Source: Candidatus Egerieisoma sp. (GTDB lineage Bacteria > Bacteroidota > Bacteroidia > Bacteroidales > UBA932). From it: 64,000 nt of DNA. Below are positions 6,472-50,842 of this stretch, piece after piece. Where the stretch lies: the NCBI GenBank assembly GCA_045592325.1, contig JAZNUM010000058.1:834-64833 (forward strand). The letters run 5' to 3'. Position numbers and translations under genes: made by a program. How positions within the stretch are numbered: the stretch's first letter is position 1; each line of letters opens with the position of its first letter. The notes under the pieces are model-generated. The model saw nothing but the letters and a program-made list of their open reading frames with translations. It was not told the origin of the DNA and ran no database searches.

Positions 6472-7467
6472 TTATGGGAACGGTATCCTAAAGACTTTAT
6501 ATGCTCTTTTCAACAAATTGAAGATTGTGCAATTGCCCTTCAGCACAAAATATAGCATCAGTTTATGGTTATAGTCTTTTGCAAGCCCTAACAGTGATTT
6601 GACATTTCCTTCAATTTCCGGGAAAAGTCTGCTATAATGTTTCTGCGTGTCGCCACCTGTATACATCATGCACCAGTATCTTACTGTCAATTTCCTGAAA
6701 TTCATGTAAGGGGTATATTCCGACAACCCTTTCCGATTCAGGTAATCTGACACACAGCCAACTGAATACAACCAACTTGAAATATGGCTCAGAGAGATAT
6801 TCTTTGTTATGGAATTGGTGTTATACTGCACATAATGGTATACTGCCTCCGGAACATAGGCAATACTTCCGGCCTCTATGCAGGCTTGGACAATAACCGC
6901 ATAATCTTCAGAATTATTATATCCCTCTTTAAGGACTTTTGCACAACTGGCAAGCAACTCACGCCTGACAAGTTTATTCCAAAAATAGACAGAGTTGCCC
7001 ATAATTATTTTTGAAATCATTTTAAACTTATCTGCATCATATGGAGACTTGAGTAAAGTTGTTCTGCCGCTATATTCTTTCACGACATCAGACATCACCA
7101 TATCTGCATCATATTTTTTGGCAGCAACATACAATTGTTCCAAAAAGCAGGGCTCTATATAATCATCCCCGTCTATGTAAATAACATATTCACCTGTAGC
7201 ATTTTCCAACGCAGTAATCCTGGCAGCCGCAACACCTCTGTTTTTCTGATGGGAAAGGAATTTGAAAGAAATATTATCCTTAACTTCCGATATGCTGATC
7301 AAATCCTTTATTTGTCCTATACTGTCGTCTATAGAACAGTCATCAACAACAATAATCTCAACGTTGGAGCAAATTGTCTGCTCCAATAGAGATTTAAAGC
7401 ACTTTGCCACATATTTGCCAGTATTATAAATTGGCACCAGAACACTTATTTCAACCCCTTTCTGCAT
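6472..7467 (-). CDS. family 2 glycosyltransferase
   Basis: ISVLVPIYNTGKYV...IIVVDDCSIDDS...YIDGDDY are GT-A fold GT2 motifs (DxD). Confidence 0.85.
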   Translation of the reverse strand: MQKGVEISVLVPIYNTGKYVAKCFKSLLEQTICSNVEIIVVDDCSIDDSIGQIKDLISISEVKDNISFKFLSHQKNRGVAAARITALENATGEYVIYIDGDDYIEPCFLEQLYVAAKKYDADMVMSDVVKEYSGRTTLLKSPYDADKFKMISKIIMGNSVYFWNKLVRRELLASCAKVLKEGYNNSEDYAVIVQACIEAGSIAYVPEAVYHYVQYNTNSITKNISLSHISSWLYSVGCVSDYLNRKGLSEYTPYMNFRKLTVRYWCMMYTGGDTQKHYSRLFPEIEGNVKSLLGLAKDYNHKLMLYFVLKGNCTIFNLLKRAYKVFRIPFP

Positions 7468-46355: not shown

Positions 46356-46519
46356 TGAAATTCATTATCCTTACAACCCTATTCCCCTCCCCCACCAGAA
46401 ACCTCTTCTGAAGGCATTCTAAAAAAATTCCAAGGACAACGGGCCCATATCGGCCCGTTATCCTCAGCCAACCCTCTTCCTTTGCTTCCCGACAGGTTCA
46501 GCAAGGACAACAAAATTCA
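46356..46519 (+). repeat. 164-bp repeat element, copy A
   Basis: Shares TGAAATTCATTATCCTTA at the left end and a roughly 85% identical right half with copy B. Terminal inverted repeats GAAATTCATTATCCTT / AAGGACAACAAAATTC. 13-bp hairpin AGGACAACGGGCC-CATATC-GGCCCGTTATCCT. Confidence 0.8.
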
Positions 46520-46600: not shown

Positions 46601-47575
46601 ATGAAGAAAACAGATGAGTTGCTCAGAAATATTGGGCACGACTTAGGGCTTAATGAACCAACCTATAAAGGGAGAAATCTCCCAGTCAGAAATTGCTGGC
46701 ACTTTTACACCAATGGCAACAATATTGACCACATGTTCTGCGACGAACAGGACTTCAAAGATGGGATGAACCGCATATTTGTAACAATCAACAAGTTCAA
46801 AGCAATCATTCTGGCATTTACTCTCATGGATACCCACATACACTTTATCCTATATGGCCAGTTTGACGAATGCAACAGATTCATTCACCACTTCATAAAC
46901 ATAACATCAAGGGCTATAAGCGAAAGATTCAATGAATCACACAAACTGGCAAATGTACAGATAAGCCACCAGACAATAAACAACGAACAATATCTGAAAA
47001 CAGCCATCTGTTATGTATTGAGAAATGCACCTGTAGGAGGAATCCCCTACAATGCATTGGACTATCCGTGGTCAAGCGCACCACTTTATTTCAAAGGCCC
47101 AACCAAATGCAACTGGACATCACCACTTTGGCAAGCCCCTTCAAATTTCATGGAATTGCAGAATCTCACATTCACAGAGAAAAGGAAATTCCTCAAAACC
47201 AGAAACCCCGGAACACTCCAAAATGCAAAAATCTTCCATGGAATAGTTTTCCCAGGAGAATACGTTGCATACGAAGTAGTTGAAAGGATATTCAAAACCC
47301 ACAAAAGTTTCAATTACTTCCTCAACACCTGCAAAGAATCATACATAGAATCCCGACAAGGCAACATAGCAAATCTATCCATCCCCATGCAGGAACTGCG
47401 CATGCTCCGCAATGCAGCCTGTAAAGAGTTGCTCGGAGAAGAATTCTCCAGAAACCTCTCCACTCTCCAACGGCTCAAACTCGCCCGCACCCTCAAAAGA
47501 AAATACCTGTGCTCAACAAAACAGATAGCACGAATATGTGGCCTGCTATACGATGAAGCCAAACATTTGCTTTAA
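46601..47575 (+). CDS. HUH/Y1 transposase-like protein (IS200/RAYT family) with C-terminal DnaA-domain-IV-like HTH
   Basis: LMDTHIHFILYG is an HUH motif. ICYVLRNAPVGGIPYNALDYPWSS resembles the RAYT Y..NPV...DYPWSS block. The C-terminus LKLARTLKRKYLCSTKQIARICGL resembles the DnaA domain IV HTH. Confidence 0.7.
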   Translation: MKKTDELLRNIGHDLGLNEPTYKGRNLPVRNCWHFYTNGNNIDHMFCDEQDFKDGMNRIFVTINKFKAIILAFTLMDTHIHFILYGQFDECNRFIHHFINITSRAISERFNESHKLANVQISHQTINNEQYLKTAICYVLRNAPVGGIPYNALDYPWSSAPLYFKGPTKCNWTSPLWQAPSNFMELQNLTFTEKRKFLKTRNPGTLQNAKIFHGIVFPGEYVAYEVVERIFKTHKSFNYFLNTCKESYIESRQGNIANLSIPMQELRMLRNAACKELLGEEFSRNLSTLQRLKLARTLKRKYLCSTKQIARICGLLYDEAKHLL

Positions 47576-47645
47576 ATATAGGAAAATCATGCCCACCATC
47601 TGTGTAGACATACAGGATATGTTGTCTCAAGCCACTGGCCCTGAC

Positions 47646-47749
47646 GCAGCACACTGGTGCGGGATGCTGGTGCAGCACACTGGTGCGGGATGATGGTACA
47701 GCACACTGGTGCGGGATGCTCGTGCGGCACACTGGTGCGGGATGCTGTC
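47646..47749. repeat. 26-bp tandem repeat x4
   Basis: GCAGCACACTGGTGCGGGATGCTGGT units at 47646, 47672, 47698 and 47724. Each contains a small GCAC-ACTG-GTGC hairpin. Confidence 0.9.
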
Positions 47750-47813
47750 GGGAGATGGTGCCACAAAGTGAAAATGAATTATCAGCAGCAAAACGGCCAG
47801 ACAGATACTATAA

Positions 47814-47976
47814 TGAAATTCATTATCCTTATGAGTTAATGGCAACCTCGGCTACAACCATCTACAGAGGACTTTTTAAAAAAACTCCGAGGACAACGGC
47901 CCCAAATTGCCCCGTTATCCTCAGTACCCCTCCTTCCATTGCTTCCCGACAGATTATGTAAGGATAACGAAATTCA
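47814..47976 (+). repeat. 164-bp repeat element, copy B
   Basis: Same ends, same central hairpin region (GAGGACAACGGCCCC...GCCCCGTTATCCTC) and the same CTTCC.TTGCTTCCCGACAG block as copy A. The left-central ~47 nt have diverged. Confidence 0.8.
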
Positions 47977-48025
47977 CTTTCTACCAATAATTTGAATTAG
48001 CGGTACAACCTCTAATATTTTTTAT

Positions 48026-48033
48026 TAGATTTG
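48026..48033 (+). promoter_or_regulatory. -7 box TAGATTTG upstream of the asnA leader
   Basis: TAnnTTTG match 9 nt before the leader ATG. Confidence 0.4.
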
Positions 48034-48041
48034 CACCAGTT

Positions 48042-48125
48042 ATGAGACTCTACAATAATAATATCATTATAAACAATTGCATCAATAACCTTTTTGTTGC
48101 AGTGGGGAGTCTTATTGTTTTATAG
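48042..48125 (+). CDS. candidate Asn-rich leader peptide (27 aa)
   Basis: ATG AGA CTC TAC AAT AAT AAT ATC ATT ATA AAC AAT TGC ATC AAT AAC ... TAG translates to MRLYNNNIIINNCINNLFVAVGSLIVL. 7 of 27 codons are Asn. Located upstream of asnA. Confidence 0.5.
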   Translation: MRLYNNNIIINNCINNLFVAVGSLIVL

Positions 48126-48148
48126 GTAAATGTTTTAATGTAAATGAT

Positions 48149-48176
48149 AAGGCTCTCGGCAATGAGGGCCTTTTTT
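48149..48176 (+). terminator. intrinsic terminator (attenuator) between the leader ORF and asnA
   Basis: AAGGCTCTC-GGCAAT-GAGGGCCTT (9 bp with one G-U pair) followed by TTTTTT. Confidence 0.7.
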
Positions 48177-48280
48177 AATGGTGTACCAACCGTACCGGCA
48201 AAACCGGCAAAACCGGCAGCAACAACGGCAACCGGTAGTGACTGGCAGCAATACGGAGCATCTTTTTGGAGATTGGGATT

Positions 48281-49321
48281 ATGGGAAAATTGTTTATTCC
48301 GCAGGGATATGTTTCAAAACTGGATGTATGGCAGACAGAGAGGGCCATCAAGTTTATAAAGGATACTTTTCAGCAACACCTTTCGGCACAACTGAAGCTC
48401 AGGAGGGTAACTGCTCCGCTGGTGGTGGAGGCAAACAAGGGGTTGAATGACAATTTGTCGGGAGTGGAGGCCCCGGTAACTTTCGCCGTAAATGATCTTG
48501 GAGAGGGAAAGAAGGTCGAGATTGTGCAGTCACTTGCAAAATGGAAGAGATATACCCTCTGGAGACATCATATTGAAGCAGGGAAAGGTATTTATACAGA
48601 TATGAATGCTCTCCGCCCGTGCGAGGAACTGGACAATATCCACTCCATTTATGTTGACCAGTGGGATTGGGAGAAGGTGATGCTGGAGAGTGAACGTACC
48701 ACAGAATACCTGCACCAGACAGTAGAGTGCATCTACAAGGCTCTCAAACATACAGAGTACCTTTTATGTGAACAATATCCTGTCTTCTCCCCTTTCCTTC
48801 CCGACAAAGTGCATTTTATGCATGCAGAGGAACTCCGCAGGGAATACCCAGGCCTCGCCCCCAAAGGGAGAGAATATGAAATATGCAAAAAATATGGGGC
48901 AGTGTTCATTCAGGGTATAGGATGTGCATTGGGTGACGGCACCCTGCACGACACCCGCTCCTCTGATTATGATGACTGGAGTTCCCCTACCCCCGACGGG
49001 TTCTGCGGTCTGAACGGTGATATCCTAATCTACAATCCTGTATTGGATTCCGCATTTGAAATCTCCTCAATGGGCATAAGGGTAAATCCACATGCCCTTG
49101 AAAAGCAATTGGAGATCAGCGGCAACACAGAACGCAAGAAACTCATGTTCCACTCGTTGCTACTGGAAGGAAAACTTCCGCAGACAATTGGTGGCGGTAT
49201 TGGCCAAAGCCGCCTATGTATGCTCCTTATGGGGAAATGCCATATTGGAGAAGTTCAGAGCGGAGTATGGGATGATGCAACCAGGGCTGCCTGTGCAGAT
49301 GCCGGGGTATATCTGTTGTAA
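48281..49321 (+). CDS. asnA: aspartate--ammonia ligase (asparagine synthetase A)
   Basis: ERAIKFIKDTFQQHLSAQLKLRRVTAPL...DWEKV...GGGIGQSRLCMLLL-like class II aaRS-related AsnA blocks. Start taken at MGKLFIPQ. Confidence 0.9.
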   Translation: MGKLFIPQGYVSKLDVWQTERAIKFIKDTFQQHLSAQLKLRRVTAPLVVEANKGLNDNLSGVEAPVTFAVNDLGEGKKVEIVQSLAKWKRYTLWRHHIEAGKGIYTDMNALRPCEELDNIHSIYVDQWDWEKVMLESERTTEYLHQTVECIYKALKHTEYLLCEQYPVFSPFLPDKVHFMHAEELRREYPGLAPKGREYEICKKYGAVFIQGIGCALGDGTLHDTRSSDYDDWSSPTPDGFCGLNGDILIYNPVLDSAFEISSMGIRVNPHALEKQLEISGNTERKKLMFHSLLLEGKLPQTIGGGIGQSRLCMLLMGKCHIGEVQSGVWDDATRAACADAGVYLL

Positions 49322-49411: not shown

Positions 49412-50842
49412 CTATCGGGAAGCAACTTTCCTGAAGAACAGTCCTGCGCATAGCAATGTTGCTACCGCTCCACCAATATAACCTGCAACAGGCTCAAGAT
49501 TGAGTCCTCCCTGTACATTAGGTGCAATAAGGAGGAAGCAGACACTCATATATGTAATGAACATTGCCGGAAGTGACATTACCCAATGGCTCTTTCCTAC
49601 TGTTGTAAGGTATACGGCACAAGCCCATAAAGTTATGGCAGCCAGCAACTGGTTACTAATACCAACGTATGTCCATATAATTGAGAAGTCAACGTTACAG
49701 CTTATGAATGCAACAAGGAATATTGGAATACAGATTATAATCCTGTTCTTCACAGGTTTCTGCGAATAGCCTACGGCATCTGCCAAAATAAGCCTCAAAC
49801 TTCTGAAGGCGGTATCGCCTGATGTAATTGGACAAACCACAATACCAAGGATTGCTATCACGGCTCCAATCTTGCCAAGCCAACTTTCACAAATGGTGTT
49901 TACAATTATTGCAGGGGTATTACCGGCATCAGCCATAGCGTTCAGTTGCTCCGGGCCGCCAAAATATGCCATTGCGGCAGTTGCCCAGATACATGCAACA
50001 ACACCCTCTGCTATCATTGCGCCATAGAAAATAGGACGTCCATACTTCTCATTACTCATACAACGGGCCATGAGTGGCGACTGTGTAGCATGGAAACCGC
50101 TTATCGCTCCACATGAAATCACAATGAAAAGCATTGGAATAAGCATATATTCTCCAGCATTTGATTTATAATTATGAAACGTTGCAGGTGTCAGTTCAAC
50201 CATACTCAACTCCCCGGCAAACCCTTTTACAAGAATAGATCCGCCAATGACTACTGCCATAAAGAGCAGCACTGCCCCCATATATGGATAAATTGTCCCT
50301 ATAATCTTGTCTATCGGGAGGAGGGTTGCAATTATATAATAAATGAAAATCAATGTAAGCCACACCTTTATATCCCATCCCGACAACTGTTGCAACAAAC
50401 CTGCCGGACCGCTTATGAATGAAGTTCCTACTGCAAAAAGGAGCACAATTATAACGAACGTAAGAATCTTGGTAAATCCTTTCCCCAAATATTTGCCAAT
50501 CACCTCATTCAGGCTCGCCCCCTTATGCCTTAATGAAAGCATCCCCGCAACATAATCGTGCGATGCACCCATAAAGATACACCCCAGCACAATCCACAGA
50601 TAAGCTATAGGGCCATACGCTGCACCCATTATTGCGCCAAAGATAGGCCCCAATCCTGCAATATTGAGAAACTGAATAATAAATATCTTCCACGGCTTTA
50701 TAACCTGATAATCCACACCATCCGCCATCTCCACTGCCGGAGTGATACGAGAAGAATCTGCACCAAAGAATTTATCTATAAACTTGCCATAGGTAAAATA
50801 CCCGGCAACAAGCAATGTAATAGAAACTAAAAATGTAATCAT
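49412..50842 (-). CDS. cstA: carbon starvation protein A family transporter
   Basis: 476-aa polytopic protein. FGKFIDKFFG...NIAGLGPIFGAIMGA...GCIFMGASHDY are CstA motifs. Confidence 0.85.
   Translation of the reverse strand: MITFLVSITLLVAGYFTYGKFIDKFFGADSSRITPAVEMADGVDYQVIKPWKIFIIQFLNIAGLGPIFGAIMGAAYGPIAYLWIVLGCIFMGASHDYVAGMLSLRHKGASLNEVIGKYLGKGFTKILTFVIIVLLFAVGTSFISGPAGLLQQLSGWDIKVWLTLIFIYYIIATLLPIDKIIGTIYPYMGAVLLFMAVVIGGSILVKGFAGELSMVELTPATFHNYKSNAGEYMLIPMLFIVISCGAISGFHATQSPLMARCMSNEKYGRPIFYGAMIAEGVVACIWATAAMAYFGGPEQLNAMADAGNTPAIIVNTICESWLGKIGAVIAILGIVVCPITSGDTAFRSLRLILADAVGYSQKPVKNRIIICIPIFLVAFISCNVDFSIIWTYVGISNQLLAAITLWACAVYLTTVGKSHWVMSLPAMFITYMSVCFLLIAPNVQGGLNLEPVAGYIGGAVATLLCAGLFFRKVASR

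Follow-up and report, generated by a model that had tools for sequence, protein, structure and literature searches.

A probable leader-peptide attenuator with asparagine codons upstream of asnA in Bacteroidales

Upstream of asnA, the gene for aspartate-ammonia ligase, in a 64,000-nucleotide stretch of the Candidatus Egerieisoma sp. genome (contig JAZNUM010000058.1; the whole of this stretch is referred to here as the window), a short open reading frame (ORF) rich in asparagine (Asn) codons is followed by an intrinsic terminator. The question raised by this locus is whether the ORF and the terminator are a fortuitous product of AT-rich intergenic DNA, or a regulatory leader in which the position of a translating ribosome decides whether RNA polymerase proceeds into asnA, in the manner of the trp and his leaders, as a preliminary description of the sequence had proposed. 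The sequence of the locus, its relatives and footprint-constrained folding support the second answer: the element is probably a ribosome-mediated leader-peptide transcription attenuator that would set asnA transcription by the supply of charged tRNA-Asn.

The asparagine-codon leader and its relatives

In the ORF map, the leader ORF extends on the plus strand, as do all features of the element, from the ATG at 48042 to the TAG at 48123–48125; it consists of 27 codons and encodes MRLYNNNIIINNCINNLFVAVGSLIVL. All seven AAY triplets of the ORF are in frame and, by frame count, are arranged in runs of three (AAT x3, 48054–48062), two (AAC AAT, 48072–48077) and two (AAT AAC, 48084–48089). The ORF is preceded by TAGATTTG (48026–48033, checked directly in the sequence), a candidate Bacteroidota sigma-ABfr ‘-7' promoter box of the form TAnnTTTG, which is the sigma-ABfr -7 consensus (PMC7366714). 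Downstream of the ORF, the stem of the intrinsic terminator (48149–48172; 10 pairs, five of them G-C, -14.1 kcal/mol) runs into six consecutive T residues (48171–48176), and the distance from this T tract to the asnA ATG (48281) is 104 nucleotides. The promoter box, the leader ORF, its seven Asn codons in runs of 3, 2 and 2, and the terminator had all been listed in the preliminary description, and a direct check of the sequence found each of them in place. The gene that follows, asnA (48281–49321, plus strand), encodes a protein that matches TIGR00669 with an E-value of 2e-115 and 385.6 bits, above the cut-off of 292.8, and is considered monocistronic because the next gene is convergent.

The simplest explanation of such a leader would be a chance ORF in AT-rich intergenic DNA located next to an unrelated terminator. 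In AT-rich DNA, Asn codons are cheap, and the segment that includes the leader (47991–48150) has a G+C content of 27%, which favours AAT triplets. Yet seven Asn codons within 14 stop-free codons occur only once across all six frames of the window, and first-order Markov simulations of the 400-nucleotide region reach this threshold in only 1 of 5000 runs with the composition of the region and in 6 of 5000 with the AT-rich composition of the 27% G+C core. The next-best Asn-rich stretch of the window (7333–7380) was considered as a leader and rejected, as it is an antisense frame of a 331-amino acid minus-strand gene.

The upstream regions of asnA (up to 450 nucleotides each) were collected from 78 species-representative genomes and at least 78 metagenome contigs, about 156 loci in all. 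In this set, the maximum number of Asn codons per 14 codons is bimodally distributed, with a background of 1–5 and a range of 7–13 in the loci with a leader; L012 is the sole leader locus below seven (maximum count of five). The roughly 140 element-free upstream regions among the matches listed show maxima of 1–5, and the reverse strands do not exceed six. Four metagenome loci (L099, L122, L127 and L138) reach 4–6 and carry a different Asn-rich leader design that is described below.

An Asn-rich ORF followed by a terminator is present before asnA in at least 13 other loci (L001, L012, L013, L014, L015, L019, L020, L021, L023, L033, L042, L056 and L081), including those of Odoribacter, Marinifilaceae and Labilibaculum, with Odoribacter sp. 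Z80 (L012) and Labilibaculum manganireducens (L023) as examples in culture, so that the search of relatives for a conserved short ORF with an Asn bias, which had been suggested in the preliminary description, gave a positive result. Many of these leaders have in common a peptide motif, NNN..NNC.NN, and an RNA motif, TTGCA..GGGGAGGTTRTTGTT. An nhmmer profile built from the elements of seven other species, with the window and L001 left out, matches the window once, with model positions 1–137 aligned to 48042–48176, that is, from the ATG to the T tract (E-value of 1.8e-10). This single end-to-end match argues that the window element is a homologue of the conserved family. In four of the loci (L012, L013, L021 and L081), the upstream gene is divergent, and therefore, the leader hairpin is not the terminator of an upstream gene.

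Across the family, which includes 15 distinct elements, 127 of the 140 AAY triplets and 28 of the 29 separate AAY runs are in the frame of the leader ATG, with AAT and AAC alternating at the wobble positions. The occurrence in at least 13 other loci, the consistency of the frame and the co-variation of the helices discussed below, along with the rarity of such ORFs in the simulations and the profile match, effectively refute the chance origin of the leader.

The leader of L001, the AsnA of which is 96% identical to that of the window, differs from the window leader by one synonymous change (AAT to AAC), and this near-identity of the leaders is accompanied by rearrangement of the spacer that follows the T tract. 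The stretch that separates the T tract from asnA (48177–48280 in the window) is G+C-rich, repetitive and hypervariable: the window contains 2.8 copies of ACCGGCAAA at 48194–48218, and the L001 spacer (L001:2820–2955), expanded to a repeat array with 13-, 36- and 48-nucleotide periods, is about 90 nucleotides longer.

Alternative helices and the predicted switch

The leader transcript contains four segments that can form mutually exclusive helices. Region 1 (AUGAGACUCU, 48042–48051), the putative anti-antiterminator strand, pairs with 48106–48115 in the minimum-energy fold of 48042–48176, and thus, the pairing that had been proposed from inspection between the beginning and the end of the ORF is recovered by folding. 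Region 2 (GGGAGUCUUAUUGUUU, 48105–48120), at the 3' end of the leader ORF, has two alternative partners, region 1 and region 3 (48142–48158); the latter combines the 3' strand of the antiterminator (48142–48157) with the 5' arm of the terminator (48149–48158). Region 4 (48163–48176) contains the 3' arm of the terminator (48163–48172), which overlaps the T tract. Between regions 1 and 2, an inner hairpin (48076–48081 and 48083–48085 paired with 48094–48096 and 48098–48103) draws on two conserved segments, AAUUGCA (Asn-Cys) and UUGCA. Among the short complementary motifs that were originally noted, AGACTC of region 1 (48045–48050) and AAGGCTC of the terminator 5' arm (48149–48155) are located exactly where they had been placed, and GAGTCT is found one base further downstream, at 48107–48112 instead of 48106–48111.

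The antiterminator is more extensive than the preliminary description held: region 2 does pair with the 5' arm of the terminator, but over 16 base pairs rather than seven (48105–48120 with 48142–48157), with a predicted energy of about -17.8 kcal/mol, which makes it stronger than the terminator (-14.1 kcal/mol). No other segment of the window leader is a better complement of the terminator 5' arm than region 2 (-17.9 kcal/mol; z-score of -5.2; none of 200 shuffles as good), and the stop codon of the ORF is located 3 nucleotides past this region. The same arrangement recurs throughout the family, with the best complement of the terminator 5' arm found at the 3' end of the ORF in 15 of the 15 elements (-7 to -21 kcal/mol), and the complementarity of region 2 exceeds that of at least 98% of the shuffled sequences in 13 of the 15.

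Column-wise scoring of the antiterminator is blurred on the MAFFT alignment by terminator arms that do not line up, and alignment-free duplex tests, in which the pairing of segments from the same element is compared with cross pairings between elements, were used instead. The mean energy of pairing between region 2 and region 3 of the same element is -15.5 kcal/mol compared with -11.5 kcal/mol for the cross pairings, with none of the 5000 permutations as good; thus, region 2 co-varies with its own terminator. For the helix between regions 1 and 2, the duplex test gives a mean of -11.5 kcal/mol for own pairings and -9.1 kcal/mol for cross pairings (p=0.0008), and on the plain MAFFT alignment, 70% of the cells pair, compared with 63% after shuffling (1 of 500) and 40–58% when the strands are slid. 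In most of the relatives, region 1 consists of the first Asn run together with CCUU and pairs with GGGAAGG plus UUAUUGUU. Overall, the anti-antiterminator helix is moderately supported. The inner hairpin shows changes on both sides in five of its seven pairs, with 78% of the cells paired on the MAFFT alignment, and the terminator predicted by RNAalifold has eight pairs, four of these with compensatory changes. The two alternative pairings of region 2 co-vary within elements in the own-versus-cross tests; RNAalifold gives no consensus helix between regions 1 and 2.

A 14-nucleotide unit, TGTTTTATAGGTAAA, is present in 2.1 tandem copies at 48116–48146, where it extends over both the leader stop codon and the spacer that precedes the terminator; the unit is found in L001 as well and supplies a small hairpin within the loop of the antiterminator.

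The effect of a ribosome on the choice between these structures was mimicked by holding a footprint of 28 nucleotides single-stranded in computed equilibrium folding. The probability of the terminator in the window is 0.93 with no ribosome. Placing the A site on the first Asn run lowers this value to 0.14, the last Asn codon gives 0.53, and the stop codon gives 0.95; with the A site on the stop codon, the probability of pairing between regions 2 and 3 is 0.00. In agreement with these values, the minimum-energy folds contain the antiterminator when the footprint is on the first Asn run and return to the terminator when the footprint is on the stop codon. The predicted switch of the window is the cleanest in the family (0.93, 0.14 and 0.95). 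When the transcript is cut before region 4 emerges, which is taken to be the kinetically relevant moment, the mean probability across the family of pairing between regions 2 and 3 is 0.76 with a stalled ribosome, 0.14 with the ribosome at the stop codon and 0.53 without a ribosome, the latter with a wide spread. What appears robust and conserved in these models is the logic whereby a ribosome over region 2 would lead to termination and a ribosome held on the Asn codons would lead to antitermination.

From these features, we infer the transcription start, the translation of the leader, the stalling of the ribosome and the response to asparagine, which would be connected as follows. Transcription would begin just 3' of the TAGATTTG box, and the 27-codon leader would be translated while RNA polymerase proceeds. 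With plentiful Asn-tRNA, the ribosome would reach the TAG at 48123 and mask region 2 (48105–48120), whereupon the terminator (48149–48158 paired with 48163–48172, followed by the T tract) would form, yielding a transcript of about 135 nucleotides that ends near 48176. With Asn-tRNA scarce, the ribosome would stall at the Asn codons (48054–48089) and occupy region 1 (48042–48051), leaving region 2 free to form the 16-base pair antiterminator with 48142–48157, which would sequester the 5' arm of the terminator and allow the polymerase to read into asnA. In the absence of translation, regions 1 and 2 would pair with each other and the terminator would form.

Competing explanations and genomic context

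The pairing of the anti-antiterminator helix brings up an alternative in which translation is irrelevant. In most of the relatives, the Asn run is itself one strand of this helix, with AAUAAUAAU paired with UUAUUAUUG, and therefore, the repeats have a structural role; furthermore, the conserved motifs are maintained at the RNA level. Both observations would fit an attenuator made of RNA only, in which the AAU repeats and the G-rich segment bind a protein or a small ligand, as in the case of TRAP, PyrR or a riboswitch, or act by folding alone. Such an attenuator, however, does not explain why 28 of the 29 AAY runs are in the frame of a conserved upstream ATG with AAT and AAC alternating at the wobble positions, why the stop codon is consistently located at region 2, or why the codons are those for the amino acid made by the enzyme that the downstream gene encodes. 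In addition, the Rfam scan of 47000–49000 (both strands, E-values up to 10) gave no riboswitch or T-box match. This explanation is very unlikely, and leader translation remains at the core of the preferred reading, the ribosome-mediated attenuator.

The matches that the Rfam scan did return, namely rli43 (minus strand), Phe_leader, STnc280, FopS, Pseudomon-groES and STnc150, are all below threshold and were set aside as chance or generic terminator-like matches.

The position of the stop codon and the behaviour of the G-rich motif also bear on the nature of the encoded peptide. In 13 of the 15 elements, the leader stop codon is within about 12 nucleotides of the end of region 2, and direct reading of the sequences finds the GGGGAGG-type motif of this region in differing codon phases between elements; hence the conservation is at the RNA level, and the C-terminal part of the peptide is not kept as a protein. 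This pattern would be expected of a regulatory leader rather than of a functional small protein. When 10 leader peptides were searched for as exact sequences among 15 billion collected proteins, none was found. It is nevertheless conceivable that the transcript of about 135 nucleotides functions mainly as a small RNA, or the 27-amino acid peptide as a small protein, with the adjacency to asnA being incidental, given that the element looks like a stand-alone unit from promoter to terminator and produces weak, sub-threshold matches to small RNAs in Rfam (FopS, 20.1 bits; STnc280, 21.2 bits). These small RNA matches have E-values of 1 or greater, the peptide is not conserved beyond the Asn runs, the RNA motif shifts its codon phase and the peptides are absent from the protein collection; moreover, the unit is always found directly before asnA and in the same orientation, in varied genomic contexts. 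A primary role as a small RNA or a small protein is thus highly improbable.

Several observations count against an operating ribosome-mediated attenuator in the window or make its operation less straightforward, and the first of these concern the translation start. An exact TAnnTTTG box, for which the plus strand has a background frequency of 33 per 64 kb, is found 8–22 nucleotides before the leader ATG in the window and in L012, L013, L014 and L015, but the gap is 8 nucleotides in the window versus 13–22 nucleotides in the four relatives. Because the window box ends 8 nucleotides before the ATG, the implied 5' untranslated region (UTR) would be only about 3–5 nucleotides long, which would be unusual for Bacteroides; in B. 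thetaiotaomicron, about 3.7% of the 5' UTRs are shorter than 10 nucleotides. In the window, the start context (gcaccagtt) does not have the A-rich character that marks initiation sites in Bacteroidota, in contrast to that of the relatives. The helices contribute further difficulties. Region 1 of the window is the start-codon segment, unlike in most of the relatives, where it includes the first run of Asn codons; the helix between regions 1 and 2 is A-U rich and shifts its register; and RNAalifold applied to the MAFFT alignments yields only the terminator at full length and no consensus for the 5' parts. In the folding models, a stall at the middle Asn pair still leaves the terminator in the fold, and once region 3 has been made, 10 of the 15 elements can form the antiterminator at equilibrium without a ribosome, the helix between regions 1 and 2 failing to outcompete that between regions 2 and 3. 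Therefore, the rule that no translation means termination is not general, although it holds in the window. Finally, of the AsnA relatives whose upstream DNA is readable, the nine closest (81–90% identity; L002, L004–L010 and L016) lack the element; in these, asnA either is located 7–63 nucleotides behind another gene or follows a different intergenic region. The element is therefore patchy and dispensable, and it was probably lost when asnA moved to a new context.

If the family is real but the copy in the window is a decaying or weakly functional relic, with a 5' UTR too short for the leader to be translated well or at all, some of these departures would be accounted for, namely the 8-nucleotide gap as opposed to 13–22 nucleotides, the start context that is not A-rich, the deviation of region 1 from the family norm and the loss of the element in the closest relatives; in that case, attenuation of asnA would be constitutive, or read-through would take place by another route. 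The short 5' UTR and the start context are the main reason for keeping this explanation. On the other hand, the ORF, the position of the stop codon and all three helices are intact in the window, its switch prediction is the cleanest in the family, short 5' UTRs do exist in Bacteroides, and the L001 leader is the same except for one synonymous change even though the adjacent spacer has been rearranged. A relic is very unlikely, and an attenuator that still operates in the window is the preferred reading.

A metagenome scan with the AsnA alignment returned, among the matches listed, mostly AsnA loci of 52–60% identity that lack the element; the only additions were L081 and four loci with another design. 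The L081 leader, on a metagenome contig, is located about 145 nucleotides upstream of asnA, in an upstream region with a G+C content of 20%, and contains 13 consecutive AAT codons (MAIRTYNRVNNNNNNNNNNNNNRIRKRYE) followed by a terminator; its predicted antiterminator is weak (-7.2 kcal/mol) and no better than shuffles. Two complete units, each with an Asn leader and a terminator, are found in tandem before asnA in Labilibaculum manganireducens (L023:114–367) and in a Bacteroidetes metagenome-assembled genome (MAG; L033:2667–2962).

The four loci with the different design (L099, L122, L127 and L138) contain a second, unrelated Asn leader about 190 nucleotides upstream of asnA. Its promoter is sigma70-like (TTGACg, 17 nucleotides, TATAAT), its ORF follows the pattern M..KK...INT.IINYNHNNNWVVPA.Q, the stop codon is covered by a co-varying hairpin (TTGGGYRG..CYRCCCAA) without a T tract, and a conserved ATTCC is present together with a Shine-Dalgarno site, GGAGGAAAA, before the asnA ATG. 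This design may represent attenuation at the level of translation instead of transcription, and in a different phylum from Bacteroidota.

The DNA upstream of the leader contains a 121-nucleotide direct repeat (46399–46519 and 47856–47976, 78% identity) and a 20-nucleotide inverted repeat (46356–46375 and 47957–47976) that bracket an ORF (46601–47575) with a weak match to REP-associated tyrosine transposases (E-value of 1.5e-5, below the cut-off) and a tandem array of 3.9 copies of a 26-nucleotide unit (47646–47747). The whole segment 46356–47976, the end of which is about 50 nucleotides upstream of the leader promoter, may be an insertion of a mobile or REP-like kind. On the minus strand, the full-length match to rli43, a small RNA of Listeria (47809–48042; 26.8 bits against a threshold of 100, E-value of 6e-4), and two weak terminator-like sites just upstream of the leader promoter (47886–47913) are probably artefacts of composition, and a divergent small transcript upstream of the promoter is not the probable reading. 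Downstream of asnA, the flanking ORF (49412–50842) is CstA-like.

With respect to the origin of the window, its AsnA groups with MAGs labelled as Bacteroidales, and the NCBI taxonomy places Candidatus Egerieisoma in Clostridiaceae; four MAGs named ‘Candidatus Egerieisoma sp.' (L005, L006, L007 and L010) encode AsnA proteins that are 82–85% identical to that of the window. This looks like an inconsistency of naming or taxonomy.

Comparison with known systems

To our knowledge, leader-peptide attenuation has been documented for just a few amino acids, mostly in Proteobacteria. The known regulation of asnA involves AsnC in Escherichia coli and T-boxes in Firmicutes, and RNA-based regulation and translation initiation in Bacteroidota are poorly understood. 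The preliminary description knew of no Asn leader for asnA in Bacteroidota, and no Asn-codon leader or asnA attenuator was found in the literature or in Rfam, a check to which the comparative attenuator survey of Lopatovskaya et al. 2010 was external. The chances are about even that the elements described here constitute the first recognised class of Asn-specific leader-peptide attenuators, with a homologous family in several lineages of Bacteroidales and Marinilabiliales in which the Asn codons double as the anti-antiterminator strand and some loci have tandem double attenuators, along with an independent, apparently translational Asn-leader design before asnA in bacteria with sigma70-type promoters and Shine-Dalgarno sites (L099, L122, L127 and L138).

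If so, this would be a new amino-acid specificity for leader-peptide attenuation, a compact and portable Asn-responsive switch for gut Bacteroidales and a natural test of transcription-translation coupling in Bacteroidota; a functional family would be direct evidence of tight coupling on near-leaderless messages in this phylum. Gene callers miss such leaders, as illustrated by the recovery of none of the 10 peptides from 15 billion proteins, and Rfam lacks them as well.

Several known systems invite comparison. The Asn-specific T-boxes found before asnA and asnS in Firmicutes likewise sense the charging of tRNA-Asn and involve antitermination before a gene of the Asn pathway, as is generally known, but they bind uncharged tRNA directly, without translation, unlike the window element, and no T-box covariance model matches 47000–49000 on either strand at E-values up to 10. 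AsnC of E. coli controls the same gene, asnA, and is asparagine-responsive, but is a protein transcription factor encoded by a gene divergent from asnA; among the genes flanking asnA in the window, a transposase-like ORF and a CstA-like transporter, there is no AsnC/Lrp-family regulator. In Staphylococcus aureus, sORF7 is likewise a short upstream ORF that is unusually rich in Asn and was considered a leader-peptide candidate by its authors (PMC13009471); it differs in that the downstream gene is of unknown function and the phylum is another one.

Closer in organization are the codon-based leaders. The best match of the window to a cis-regulatory Rfam family, Phe_leader (RF01859), has a score of 23.5 bits, below the threshold of 55 for membership (E-value of 0.52), and apart from this match, neither Bacteroid-trp (RF01692) nor any other leader family was detected in the Rfam scan of 47000–49000 at E-values up to 10. 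Bacteroid-trp, which contains Trp codons, and the 5' regions of Flavobacterium psychrophilum belong to the same phylum and share the proposed way of working, but have another amino-acid specificity and a different sequence. Leader-peptide attenuation has already been predicted in Bacteroidota, and Bacteroid-trp is listed as a cis-regulatory motif of Bacteroidetes (PMC2864571). The classic leaders of Proteobacteria, trpL, hisL, leuL, pheL, thrL and ilvL, have in common with the window element a short ORF enriched in codons for the amino acid at the end of the pathway, four segments that form, in the window by prediction, the 1:2, 2:3 and 3:4 helices, a stop codon at a position where a terminating ribosome would block the antiterminator, and an intrinsic terminator before the biosynthetic gene. 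What sets the window element apart from these leaders is Asn as the amino acid and asnA as the gene, with no sequence homology; a host from Bacteroidota, with another type of promoter, no use of Shine-Dalgarno sites and an implied 5' UTR that is very short; and, in most members of the family, regulatory codons that themselves form one strand of the 1:2 helix.

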